Below, in pieces: positions 11,131 through 28,400 of a stretch of 64,000 nt of DNA. The position numbers and the translations under genes are program-made. The stretch is from assembly GCF_013315695.1 (NCBI RefSeq), contig NZ_CP054353.1. The stretch is one strand, 5' to 3'. The number at the start of each line of letters is the position of its first letter. Position 1 is the first letter of the stretch. The notes below the pieces were generated by a model, which saw only the letters and a program-made list of their open reading frames with translations, was not told where the DNA came from and made no database searches. This stretch comes from Escherichia coli. GTDB lineage: Bacteria > Pseudomonadota > Gammaproteobacteria > Enterobacterales > Enterobacteriaceae.

Positions 11131-11258
11131 ATTAAGAAGTCGCAATGAGTATTACTTTGTAAATTGCAGGGTATTGTTTAGCTATCTGTATAACCTGAAC
11201 GTGAGTACTCATTCTTCTCAGTGGCTATTTACCAATATAATTCGGTAATGACTCCAAC

Positions 11259-11762
11259 TTATTGATAGTGTTTTATGTTCAGATAATGCCCGATGACTTT
11301 GTCATGCAGCTCCACCGATTTTGAGAACGACAGCGACTTCCGTCCCAGCCGTGCCAGGTGCTGCCTCAGATTCAGGTTATGCCGCTCAATTCGCTGCGTA
11401 TATCGCTTGCTGATTACGTGCAGCTTTCCCTTCAGGCGGGATTCATACAGCGGCCAGCCATCCGTCATCCATATCACCACGTCAAAGGGTGACAGCAGGC
11501 TCATAAGACGCCCCAGCGTCGCCATAGTGCGTTCACCGAATACGTGCGCAACAACCGTCTTCCGGAGCCTGTCATACGCGTAAAACAGCCAGCGCTGGCG
11601 CGATTTAGCCCCGACATAGCCCCACTGTTCGTCCATTTCCGCGCAGACGATGACGTCACTGCCCGGCTGTATGCGCGAGGTTACCGACTGCGGCCTGAGT
11701 TTTTTAAGTGACGTAAAATCGTGTTGAGGCCAACGCCCATAATGCGGGCTGTTGCCCGGCAT
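11259..11762 (-). CDS. insB: IS1 InsB (transposase made as an InsAB fusion by -1 frameshift)
   Basis: 167-aa ORF overlapping insA in the -1 frame. Confidence 0.9.
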
Positions 11763-11956
11763 CCAACGCCATTCATGGCCATATCAATGATTTTCTGGTG
11801 CGTACCGGGTTGAGAAGCGGTGTAAGTGAACTGCAGTTGCCATGTTTTACGGCAGTGAGAGCAGAGATAGCGCTGATGTCCGGCGGTGCTTTTGCCGTTA
11901 CGCACCACTCCGTCAGTAGCTGAACAGGAGGGACAGCTGATAGAAACAGAAGCCAC
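11681..11956 (-). CDS. insA: IS1 InsA
   Basis: 91-aa zinc-finger ORF at the IRL side of IS1. Confidence 0.9.
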
Positions 11957-12011
11957 TGGAGCACCTCAAAAACACCATCATACGCTAAATCAGTAAGTTG
12001 GCAGCATCACC

Positions 12012-12418
12012 ATATAATTCCATTCACCATTTTTTAATTCAAACAGCTCTGGAAGAGATGACGGTTGCAGAGTCATACGTTTGAGTGGTGCATTTTCATC
12101 ACCCGGGATAACTTTATATCCCATTTTTGCATGGATCTCCGCTGTACCGGGATAGGCTTCTATACCAATTATTGGGTCATTACCCAACTCAATATTAGCA
12201 TTAAGTAATGCGGCAAGGGCGAATCCGGAAGAGTTTGCCACCCCTGAGACAGTCATTATCTGATCAATATAGATATCAATCCTTGGCTGCTCATTGGTCC
12301 ATCTTTTTGCCTGAGAAGTTGGAAGAGTTGAAATATATCCTATCGTGGTTCCGGCGTAACCTGGAACATTGCAGCCAGGGCCTAATGTTATTTCATGAAC
12401 TGTATAGTCCTCAACAGG
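12012..12418 (-). pseudogene. yjiC: yjiC 3' fragment (about codons 142-273), cut by IS1 at both ends
   Basis: Open frame on the minus strand across the whole interval; joins in frame with the 5' fragment at 26432-26854 through the shared 9-mer; natural stop would lie at 11225-11227 beyond the IS1; assignment to yjiC is by synteny (between uxuR and iraD) and by the reconstructed length of 276 codons. Confidence 0.75.
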
Positions 12419-12433
12419 GGTAATGACTCCAAC

Positions 12434-12937
12434 TTACTGATAGTGTTTTATGTTCAGATAATGCCCGATGACCTTGTCATGCAGCTCCACCGATTTTGAG
12501 AACGACAGTGACTTCCGTCCCAGCCTTGCCAGATGTTGTCTCAGATTCAGATTATGTCGCTCAATGCGCTGAGTGTAACGCTTGCTGATAACGTGCAGCT
12601 TTCCCTTCAGGCGTGATTCATACAGCGGCCAGCCATCCGTCATCCATACCACGACCTCAAAGGCCGACAGCAGGCTCAGAAGACGCTCCAGTGTGGCCAG
12701 AGTGCGTTCACCGAAGACGTGCGCCACAACCGTCCTCCGTATCCTGTCATACGCGTAAAACAGCCAGCGCTGACGTGATTTAGCACCGACGTAGCCCCAC
12801 TGTTCGTCCATTTCAGCGCAGACAATCACATCACTGCCCGGTTGTATGCGCGAGGTTACCGACTGCGGCCTGAGTTTTTTAAGTGACGTAAAACCGTGTT
12901 GAGGCCAACGCCCATAATGCGTGCACTGGCGCGACAT
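12434..12937 (-). CDS. insB: IS1 InsB (variant)
   Basis: 167-aa ORF. Confidence 0.9.
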
Positions 12938-13131
12938 CCGACGCCATTCATGGCCATATCAATGATTTTCTGGTGCTTACCGGGCTGAGAGGCGGTATAA
13001 GTGAACTGTAGTTGCCATGTTTTACGGCAATGAGAGCAGAGATAGCGCTGATGTCCGGCAGTGCTTTTGCCGTTACGCACCACGCCTTCAGTAGCGGAGC
13101 AGGAAGGACATCTGATGGAAATGGAAGCCAC
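12856..13131 (-). CDS. insA: IS1 InsA (variant)
   Basis: 91-aa ORF, about 90% identical to the standard copy. Confidence 0.9.
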
Positions 13132-13456
13132 GCAAGCACCTTAAAATCACCATCATACACTAAATCAGTAAGTTGGCAGCATTACCAAATTTTAATTACA
13201 CTTAAGGTGTATATTTTCTATGCAAGCCATCAATTAAAGAGGTGTAATGTGCTGATGACTATTTGTAATCGTTATACATTCTGACCTGGAGTCAGAAGGT
13301 ATTTCTCTGTCGGTGTGTTCACAGGCAGTGTGGTTGATTACATGAAATTCAGTACATTTGCAGTCTCGTTGCCCTTCTCGCCTGCCTTTCGTCATTACCG
13401 ACGGTATTGAATTTCGTTTTGCCCGTTGGGGTTCTCCGGACAAGGAGTTGTTTGTT

Positions 13457-24983: not shown

Positions 24984-25455
24984 TTTGCGCACTCCTGACG
25001 TTTAGCAACATATGCGGCTTGCCCTGAACACCGGGCACCACTGTATTGATGCTCATTTTCCATAGCCATTCCCTTTTGTTCATTACATCCATGTCAGTCT
25101 GAGACAGGCCTGAATCCTGTCAGCAAAGTATAAAACCTTACTTGCCTATGAATATCTACTGACTTTTCAGGAAAAAAGTCATGATTTGATAAAAATCATC
25201 AAACTCAAAAAAAAACCGCTAGTATATTCTGAATATTCCGAATAGTTACGTAGATGAAAATACTTGTCACCACCGCTACTTAATTCCGGTGGGAAATTAT
25301 TTATTTCCGCATAATCAGCCATGTATTATTTAAAACAATTAGTTTGTAAATAATATAAATTGATAACATATCAAATACATCAAAAATACCATTCACAGGC
25401 ATTATTAATATAGACATCAATATAGCAACATCAAATTCCAGGTAATGACTCCAAC

Positions 25456-25959
25456 TTATTGATAGTGTTTTATGTTCAGATAATGCCCGATGACTTTGTC
25501 ATGCAGCTCCACCGATTTTGAGAACGACAGCGACTTCCGTCCCAGCCGTGCCAGGTGCTGCCTCAGATTCAGGTTATGCCGCTCAATTCGCTGCGTATAT
25601 CGCTTGCTGATTACGTGCAGCTTTCCCTTCAGGCGGGATTCATACAGCGGCCAGCCATCCGTCATCCATATCACCACGTCAAAGGGTGACAGCAGGCTCA
25701 TAAGACGCCCCAGCGTCGCCATAGTGCGTTCACCGAATACGTGCGCAACAACCGTCTTCCGGAGCCTGTCATACGCGTAAAACAGCCAGCGCTGGCGCGA
25801 TTTAGCCCCGACATAGCCCCACTGTTCGTCCATTTCCGCGCAGACGATGACGTCACTGCCCGGCTGTATGCGCGAGGTTACCGACTGCGGCCTGAGTTTT
25901 TTAAGTGACGTAAAATCGTGTTGAGGCCAACGCCCATAATGCGGGCTGTTGCCCGGCAT
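25456..25959 (-). CDS. insB: IS1 InsB
   Basis: 167-aa ORF. Confidence 0.9.
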
Positions 25960-26153
25960 CCAACGCCATTCATGGCCATATCAATGATTTTCTGGTGCGT
26001 ACCGGGTTGAGAAGCGGTGTAAGTGAACTGCAGTTGCCATGTTTTACGGCAGTGAGAGCAGAGATAGCGCTGATGTCCGGCGGTGCTTTTGCCGTTACGC
26101 ACCACCCCGTCAGTAGCTGAACAGGAGGGACAGCTGATAGAAACAGAAGCCAC
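25878..26153 (-). CDS. insA: IS1 InsA
   Basis: 91-aa ORF. Confidence 0.9.
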
Positions 26154-26431
26154 TGGAGCACCTCAAAAACACCATCATACACTAAATCAGTAAGTTGGCA
26201 GCATCACCCAAATTCCAATTAGTAATAAGATATGCTTTTAAATTGCATGCAAATAATTTTAAATGAGCGTTTTTTGATACTTTAGAGTGTTTCCCACCAT
26301 TTAATATCACTGTGTAGAGTTGATATCACTACAACAGAAACATGCATGTCATTTGTTTACTTCTCTTTTTACTACAGAAAAATTTATCTATTTTTCTAAG
26401 CATCAGTGAAATACTCATAAAGGTAACTATT

Positions 26432-26854: not shown

Positions 26855-26909
26855 GGTAATGCTGCCAACTTACTGATTTAGTGTATGATGGTGATTTTAA
26901 GGTGCTTGC

Positions 26910-27185
26910 GTGGCTTCCATTTCCATCAGATGTCCTTCCTGCTCCGCTACTGAAGGCGTGGTGCGTAACGGCAAAAGCACTGCCGGACATCAGCGCTATC
27001 TCTGCTCTCATTGCCGTAAAACATGGCAACTACAGTTCACTTATACCGCCTCTCAGCCCGGTAAGCACCAGAAAATCATTGATATGGCCATGAATGGCGT
27101 CGGATGTCGCGCCAGTGCACGCATTATGGGCGTTGGCCTCAACACGGTTTTACGTCACTTAAAAAACTCAGGCCGCAGTCGGTAA
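26910..27185 (+). CDS. insA: IS1 InsA (variant)
   Basis: 91-aa ORF. Confidence 0.9.
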
Positions 27186-27607
27186 CCTCGCGCATACAAC
27201 CGGGCAGTGATGTGATTGTCTGCGCTGAAATGGACGAACAGTGGGGCTACGTCGGTGCTAAATCACGTCAGCGCTGGCTGTTTTACGCGTATGACAGGAT
27301 ACGGAGGACGGTTGTGGCGCACGTCTTCGGTGAACGCACTCTGGCCACACTGGAGCGTCTTCTGAGCCTGCTGTCGGCCTTTGAGGTCGTGGTATGGATG
27401 ACGGATGGCTGGCCGCTGTATGAATCACGCCTGAAGGGAAAGCTGCACGTTATCAGCAAGCGTTACACTCAGCGCATTGAGCGACATAATCTGAATCTGA
27501 GACAACATCTGGCAAGGCTGGGACGGAAGTCACTGTCGTTCTCAAAATCGGTGGAGCTGCATGACAAGGTCATCGGGCATTATCTGAACATAAAACACTA
27601 TCAGTAA
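27104..27607 (+). CDS. insB: IS1 InsB (variant)
   Basis: 167-aa ORF; TTAAAAAAC frameshift motif at 27149-27157. Confidence 0.9.
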
Positions 27608-27805
27608 GTTGGAGTCATTACCCGACAGCGAGGTGTTTAGTGTGCCATGTCAGGCGAGAAATTCTATTGGATGAATCAAGTCCAACTTACTCATTGTCAA
27701 TTTCATGGTTGATTATTCGAAACGTGATGCTATTTCCAACATCAACGCTATAATTGCAGAATAATTGTAGATACATTTTTGTATATACAATTAGGGATGG
27801 CAATT

Positions 27806-28082
27806 ATGCCAATGGAGTTTGAATGGGATGAAAACAAGGCCAAAAGTAATCGGGTGAAACATGGCATCCGCTTTGAAGATGCGGTGTTATTGTTTGATGA
27901 TCCACAACATTTGTCACAGCAAGAACGCATAGAAAACGGTGAGTATCGCTGGCAGACATTACGGCATCGTGGTTATTCTGGTTGCGCATACCATCCGTTT
28001 CGAAAGCGGAAATGAAATTATTCGAATCATCAGTGCACGAAAAGCAGATCGTAAAGAGAGGAATCGCTATGAGCATGGTTAA
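27806..28082 (+). pseudogene. BrnT-like (DUF497) ribonuclease toxin gene, apparently frameshifted
   Basis: N-terminal MPMEFEWDENKAKSNRVKHGIRFEDAVLLFDDPQ in one frame ends after QTL; the conserved C-terminal IRIISARKA motif continues in another frame from about 27963 to the stop at 28080-28082; agggatgg upstream of the ATG. Confidence 0.7.
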
Positions 28083-28371
28083 ACATAAACGAGGGACCTC
28101 CTCTACACTCGATGTGCAGCATGAGGCCGAACTGAAGGCGCTGGCGAATAAATCCGACGAAGATATTGATTACAGTGATATCCCACCTTCCAGCGATGAG
28201 CAATGGTCTAACGCCGAACGCGGTAAGTTTTATCGGCCATTGAAAACTCAGGCTTCGGTGCGTATTGATGCTGATGTGATGGAATGGTTGAAGCGACCAG
28301 GTAAAGGCTATCAAACTCGCCTGAACGCAATTTTACGTGAAGCGATGCTGCGCGATCAGAACAAAAAATAA
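28069..28371 (+). CDS. BrnA-like antitoxin (ribbon-helix-helix family)
   Basis: About 100 aa from MSMVKHKRG; C-terminal GKGYQTRLNAILREAM typical of BrnA; start overlaps the toxin stop by 14 bp. Confidence 0.7.
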   Translation: MSMVKHKRGTSSTLDVQHEAELKALANKSDEDIDYSDIPPSSDEQWSNAERGKFYRPLKTQASVRIDADVMEWLKRPGKGYQTRLNAILREAMLRDQNKK

Positions 28372-28374
28372 TTC

Positions 28375-28400
28375 AGGCCGCCACATGGCGGCCATCATCC
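28375..28400. terminator. Putative bidirectional terminator hairpin between brnA-like gene and yjiA
   Basis: Palindrome ggccgccacatggcggcc between convergent stops. Confidence 0.4.

Follow-up and report, generated by a model that had tools for sequence, protein, structure and literature searches.

An 11-bp deletion in brnT, predicted to leave a toxin pseudogene beside an intact brnA antitoxin gene on the Escherichia coli chromosome

The window, as the whole stretch of DNA analysed here is called, comprises 64,000 nucleotides of an E. coli chromosome, in which the brnT and brnA genes are sited between a variable restriction-gene region and yjiA. The gene order at this point is IS1 (26855–27623, + strand, with InsA and InsB open-reading frames), which lies directly 5′ of the brnTA promoter region, then brnT and brnA, followed on the opposite strand by yjiA, yjiX, and btsT. 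The brnT gene (27806–28082) is split over two reading frames. The frame as translated (27806–28015, + strand) starts at the ATG at 27806 with MPMEFEWDENKAKSNRVKHGIRFEDAVLLFDDPQHLSQQERIENGEYRWQTL and continues for another 17 out-of-frame residues before the TGA at 28013–28015, giving 51 native and 18 out-of-frame residues (LRHRGYSGCAYHPFRKRK) in all. The conserved C-terminus, GIVVILVAHTIRFESGNEIIRIISARKADRKERNRYEHG, is found in the next frame, which ends at the TAA at 28080–28082 and is shut upstream by a TAG at 27930–27932, and this remainder of the gene (27960–28082, + strand, residues 56–95 of the intact protein) is out of frame up to the original TAA and no longer translated as toxin. A tblastn search with intact BrnT returned the same split, with residues 1–52 in frame 2 (27806–27961) and residues 56–95 in frame 3 (27960–28079) at 100% identity, and produced no second BrnT-like sequence in the whole 64-kb window. 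The antitoxin gene, brnA (28069–28371, + strand), is intact, running from the ATG at 28069 to the TAA at 28369–28371 and encoding 100 amino acids, and its start overlaps the ancestral-frame stop of brnT (28080–28082) by 14 bp, a layout that is the same in intact alleles. The reading frames, the tblastn split, and alignment with homologues thus bear out the original prediction on all of these points: the two ends of the toxin in different frames, the TAG that closes the C-terminal frame, and a complete antitoxin gene with a 14-bp overlap.

The lesion was defined by alignment with the intact alleles of strains Ecol_448 and ATCC 25922. The single frameshift-causing difference is an 11-bp gap, which this alignment placed between 27958 and 27959 (+ strand) and which corresponds to the 11 bases ATCGGCCTGGT, codons 52–55 (I-G-L-V) of the 95-residue protein. 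An indel had been predicted within 27933–27962, and the site stood; the size, given as an insertion of one nucleotide or a deletion of two, did not, an 11-bp deletion having the same effect on the frame as the loss of two. The locus spans 701 bases in the window versus 712 in most E. coli genomes with the locus, and apart from the gap it is identical to the intact allele of Ecol_448 (98.5%, or 701/712), indicating that, on sequence comparison, the deletion is a recent event. The deleted bases are non-repetitive and contain no homopolymer run, and inspection of the flanks by eye revealed no microhomology or repeats that would explain the deletion by slippage. The length of the indel, measured against the intact orthologues, is not divisible by three, and the same indel recurs in independent genomes, as expected of a frameshift pseudogene.

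The spread of the deletion allele (Δ11) was assessed with a 68-base query across the junction, compared against 5,426 complete E. coli genomes. The exact junction, at 100% identity, was present in 23 of them, and a gapped 86% match with an 11-base gap was obtained in 1,756 others, for which undeleted at this site is not proof of an intact toxin. The carriers were recovered from pig, cattle, human, frog, and water sources in China, New Zealand, Australia, Poland, and the UK. In all eight carriers examined, an IS1 family transposase is annotated equally far upstream of brnT and the BrnA protein is WP_000063156.1; seven of the eight have one YjiA protein in common. These common features fit a single Δ11 mutation, passed down within one E. 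coli lineage, rather than an artefact. IS1 also adjoins the intact brnT allele of Ecol_448. A homopolymer or base-calling error had been offered as a second reading of the frameshift, and small-gene frameshifts are indeed a frequent assembly error; support for the allele in this particular assembly comes entirely from the other genomes carrying the same junction. However, an intact gene disguised by sequencing or assembly is very improbable when the difference consists of 11 non-repetitive bases with no homopolymer run, when an identical junction occurs in 23 independently produced complete genomes, and when the flanking markers are common to the eight carriers examined. The comparison across genomes instead argues that Δ11 is a real mutation. 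The RefSeq annotation pipeline, PGAP, labels the gene “BrnT family toxin, frameshifted” in all eight examined carriers and, in identical genomes, annotates 27806–28082 as one frameshifted pseudogene; the allele is already flagged in RefSeq, and it is an ordinary, known kind of gene decay.

With the 11 bases restored, the toxin matches Pfam BrnT_toxin (PF04365, formerly named DUF497) over the full model, positions 1–77, with E=4.7e-24. The product as encoded matches only positions 1–47 of the 77, and no complete BrnT domain is present in one frame, indicating that brnT here is a pseudogene of the BrnT family and not a working member. The repaired toxin also matches PDB 7vd7_A across residues 2–95 (E=4e-52) and, weakly, Brucella BrnT (3U97, E=1.6e-4), and by such scores the resemblance of the locus to BrnT/BrnA is far beyond chance. 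Among the best 120 homologues listed, from Salmonella, Citrobacter, Enterobacter, Klebsiella, and Kosakonia, nearly all are 95 amino acids long, which argues that a short BrnT is not the normal form; the suggestion that the short N-terminal product might be normal is further countered by the 1,756 E. coli genomes undeleted at the site. Searches of NCBIfam gave no match for the truncated toxin product, the C-terminal-frame open-reading frame, or BrnA, and PADLOC matched neither protein to a defence system.

The consequence of the frameshift was examined on an AlphaFold2 model of intact BrnT (pLDDT 76.5). In this model, β1 (residues 4–7), α1 (residues 9–19), β2 (residues 27–30), and α2 (residues 38–41) precede β3 (residues 46–55), inside which the deletion falls, while β4 (residues 58–68), β5 (residues 74–83), and the C-terminal helix α3 (residues 86–94) all lie downstream of it. 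The predicted product loses half of β3 together with β4, β5, and the C-terminal helix, which deprives it of most of the β-sheet, the scaffold of BrnT according to a review (PMC5086665). Five residues of Brucella BrnT, D6, E7, K9, R41, and E78, are needed for RNase activity (PMC5086665); in a 35%-identity alignment, the equivalents D8, E9, K11, and R48 are encoded in frame and E88, the equivalent of E78, follows the frameshift. Because the RNase fold would be missing its C-terminal helix and most of its sheet, the truncated protein is, judging from the modelled structure, almost certainly inactive and would be unable to act as a toxin.

An active toxin might still be made from the locus if ribosomal frameshifting joined the two frames, or if two fragments, the N-terminal product of 69 amino acids and a C-terminal product of 47 amino acids from a GTG at 27939, assembled with each other. 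Both halves are free of other mutations, an open-reading frame starting at that GTG (27939–28082) spans the C-terminal part, and the equivalents of four catalytic residues lie within the N-terminal fragment. However, four residues of β3 are physically missing, so frameshifting cannot restore the protein, and no ribosome-binding site can be read ahead of the GTG at 27939. Intact 95-residue proteins are the rule in the family, no split BrnT occurs among the homologues listed, and we regard continued production of an active toxin, by either route, as exceedingly unlikely compared with loss of the toxin by the frameshift.

The Brucella abortus BrnT/BrnA type II toxin–antitoxin system (PDB 3U97) was reportedly described by Heaton et al. 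in 2012. The E. coli pair resembles it in having the same Pfam families (PF04365 and PF14384), a toxin-first bicistronic order with overlapping genes, and an antitoxin with a C-terminal ribbon-helix-helix domain, and putative equivalents of D6, E7, K9, R41, and E78 are all present in the ancestral E. coli sequence. It differs in that the toxins are only 35% identical and in that the E. coli toxin is here a frameshifted pseudogene, so that the pair would no longer be working. An enterobacterial complex, 7VD7, deposited as “toxin” and “antitoxin”, matches residues 2–95 of the toxin and the toxin-binding segment of the antitoxin (residues 14–57); unlike the locus in the window, the solved complex has a full-length toxin, which by eye is nearly identical to Salmonella enterica cluster P0009. 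A literature text search found no paper describing 7VD7, and a literature search for brnTA in E. coli returned nothing on this locus.

The retained antitoxin was characterized in the same way. BrnA matches Pfam BrnA_antitoxin (PF14384) over the full model length at residues 37–93 (E=3.1e-17), and residues 14–57 match the antitoxin chain 7vd7_B (E=1.4e-16); on these matches, the N-terminal part would bind the toxin and the C-terminal ribbon-helix-helix would be the DNA-binding domain. The protein is identical to WP_000063156.1 of intact operons, and the brnA sequence was identical in all seven Δ11 loci compared with the window. A ribosome-binding site, GAGAGGA (28056–28062, + strand), can be read from the sequence 6 nt before the brnA ATG. 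Translation of brnT now stops 53 nt before brnA, and BrnA might be synthesised at a lower rate now that the 14-bp translational overlap is lost. The possibility that the brnA site is hidden by RNA structure and needs upstream translation was ruled out, since the RNA around it folds no more strongly than shuffled sequences do (z=+0.75). The site is, by this folding comparison, probably accessible without upstream translation, and brnA translation is therefore probably independent of ribosomes arriving from brnT.

Candidate signals are also present upstream of brnT. A candidate −10 box for the brnTA promoter, TATAAT (27749–27754, + strand), was read from the sequence and has no good −35 partner, and a consensus scan found no full promoter on the + strand, which makes the −10 assignment weak. 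Between this box and the brnT ribosome-binding site lies an inverted repeat, TAATTGTAGATACA/TGTATATACAATTA (27762–27793), with 14-nt arms that are 93% complementary and 4 nt apart and with a perfect palindrome, TTGTATATACAA, in the second arm. The repeat is kept in all alleles that retain the promoter and is a plausible candidate operator for the ribbon-helix-helix antitoxin. The promoter region (27750–27771) also carries an 11-nt tandem repeat (ATAATTGCAGA, ATAATTGTAGA), unrelated to the 11-bp deletion; some genomes with a 158-bp deletion in brnT have also lost one tandem copy, probably by replication slippage. At the other end of the locus, brnA and yjiA converge on a GC-rich hairpin (28376–28393) with a fold of −16.5 kcal/mol (z=−5.1). 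On the − strand its 7 GC pairs precede a T-run, and it resembles a − strand terminator for yjiA. What is found at the locus is an orphan antitoxin, an intact 100-residue brnA with no working toxin beside it or elsewhere within the 64-kb window.

The neighbourhood 5′ of brnT appears to have been rearranged by insertion sequences. The IS1 at 26855–27623 (+ strand) is 100% identical to an inverted copy at 12418–13186 (− strand), and the pair brackets about 13.7 kb, from mdtM to ytiD, and splits yjiC into two halves. The outer and inner flanks of the pair are reverse complements (CCTCAACAGG, CCTGTTGAGG), which is the signature of an inversion via intramolecular replicative IS1 transposition, and the bracketed segment of about 13.7 kb is oppositely oriented in two other Δ11 strains, CE0021a and B771. 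Some strains, ATCC 25922 among them, have a restriction cluster 5′ of brnT, made up of a type I restriction-modification system and a gene for a restriction endonuclease. In the window (27600–27640 and upstream) this cluster is absent and IS1 links brnT directly to yjiC or mdtM sequence, an arrangement suggestive of loss of the variable restriction-gene region through an adjacent deletion mediated by IS1. Two more copies, of the IS1A type (11244–12011 and 25441–26208), are about 91% identical to the inverted pair, and each has a 9-bp target duplication (ATATAATTC, CAAATTCCA). The copy at 25441–26208 is not present in the otherwise near-identical strain AF3 and is therefore a very recent insertion. 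In the equivalent region of a related strain, LHM10-1, fimI (frameshifted) and bglJ (internal stop) are annotated as pseudogenes, and fragments of integrase, phospholipase D-like, and phosphorothioation-dependent restriction genes lie beside tRNA-Leu. The window and LHM10-1 are 96–99% identical and non-collinear, and the pseudogenes of LHM10-1 may differ in the window.

Of the 5,426 complete E. coli genomes, 2,112 contain the locus, and Δ11 is one of three deletions that affect brnT. A deletion of about 158 bp, which removes roughly codons 35–87, gave a junction query match in 222 genomes, and the five copies inspected all have CACAAC joined to GAACGG. In 116 genomes, a deletion of about 290 bp beside a Fic/GmrSD island has taken the promoter and the 5′ three quarters of brnT. 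In this last allele, brnA has neither its own promoter nor operator and lies, with its open-reading frame intact, 138 bp downstream of a same-strand Fic family gene, which suggests that it is expressed via read-through from the neighbouring island. In total, about 17% of loci (roughly 360/2,112) are without the toxin through three independent deletions, each of which left brnA whole; these numbers are approximate, the four allele counts summing to 2,117 versus 2,112 loci.

Orphan antitoxins are abundant in all E. coli sequence types, and anti-addiction or regulatory roles have been proposed for them (mBio 2023, PMC10790755). The loci of that survey resemble the present one in having an intact antitoxin beside a missing or dead toxin; they differ in that BrnT/BrnA is mentioned zero times there, and the three brnT deletion alleles were identified and counted in the present analysis. 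The mechanism is the known toxin-first decay of a chromosomal type II module, leaving an orphan antitoxin.

The state of brnA after toxin loss was compared among 15 sampled orphans. All 15 are intact 303-bp open-reading frames, in 7 haplotypes, with 12 synonymous and 5 non-synonymous segregating sites and a pairwise pN/pS of about 0.03–0.37. The amino-acid changes all fall in the N-terminal half, and the DNA-binding half is invariant. This pattern is consistent with selection keeping the antitoxin, in a set of 15 sequences in which recombination or older polymorphism could mimic it. On such a reading, loss of the toxin would itself be favoured, and the orphan would be kept as an anti-addiction antidote against incoming BrnT, borne by plasmids or islands, or as a transcriptional regulator, which extends the explanation by toxin decay and does not contradict it. 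In favour of it are the three independent deletions that leave brnA whole, the intactness of all 15 orphans and their segregating-site counts, the invariant DNA-binding half, and the occurrence of BrnT homologues on small enterobacterial plasmids at about 70–72% identity, among them 5.4-kb plasmids of Klebsiella and Citrobacter at about 72%. However, the constraint on the order of loss by itself predicts toxin-first decay, only 15 sequences were sampled, and the polymorphism may be older than the deletions or may have recombined in from intact loci. Incoming toxins are also scarce: only 24 plasmids fall in the 60–80% identity band, four plasmid records reach at least 94% identity (sizes 22 kb to 834 kb), and phages yield one record, apparently a Salmonella chromosomal contig. 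With plasmid homologues so few and phage homologues almost absent, the anti-addiction role has little direct support; it would further need cross-neutralisation at 70% identity, and the allele in 116 genomes has no native promoter. Selection on the orphan is accordingly a tentative proposal that we think is probably not correct, and the fuller version of it, in which brnT has been lost recurrently under selection (three deletions, roughly 360/2,112) while brnA is under purifying selection as an antidote or stand-alone repressor, is slightly more doubtful still. If it were true, Δ11 would be its youngest example. Recurrent loss of brnT with brnA kept is, in itself, a modest side observation.

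The explanation that we prefer, and in which we have high confidence, is that the locus is a chromosomal E. coli BrnT/BrnA type II module in which an 11-bp deletion made brnT a pseudogene and brnA was retained, the reading of an inactivated toxin with a retained antitoxin that the original prediction had also put forward. The deletion in codons 52–55 would have arisen recently and then been inherited within one lineage, so that translation would now yield the 51 native residues and an 18-residue nonsense tail, a product predicted to be without the integrity of the RNase fold and thus without toxin action. Since brnA appears to keep the promoter region, the candidate operator, and its own ribosome-binding site, production of BrnA probably continues, with the protein serving as a repressor and an orphan antitoxin. 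This would follow the usual order of decay in toxin–antitoxin modules, in which the toxin may be lost freely and the antitoxin is not losable while the toxin works.

For annotation, the locus would read as a brnT pseudogene with an orphan brnA, and neither as a working toxin–antitoxin system nor as a sequencing error. Orphan antitoxins are an established idea, to which the locus contributes a further example rather than a new principle. The brnTA loci of E. coli form a small natural series, in which an intact form stands beside three forms that lost the toxin independently and at different times, and the series allows the fate of an antitoxin after the loss of its toxin to be studied.
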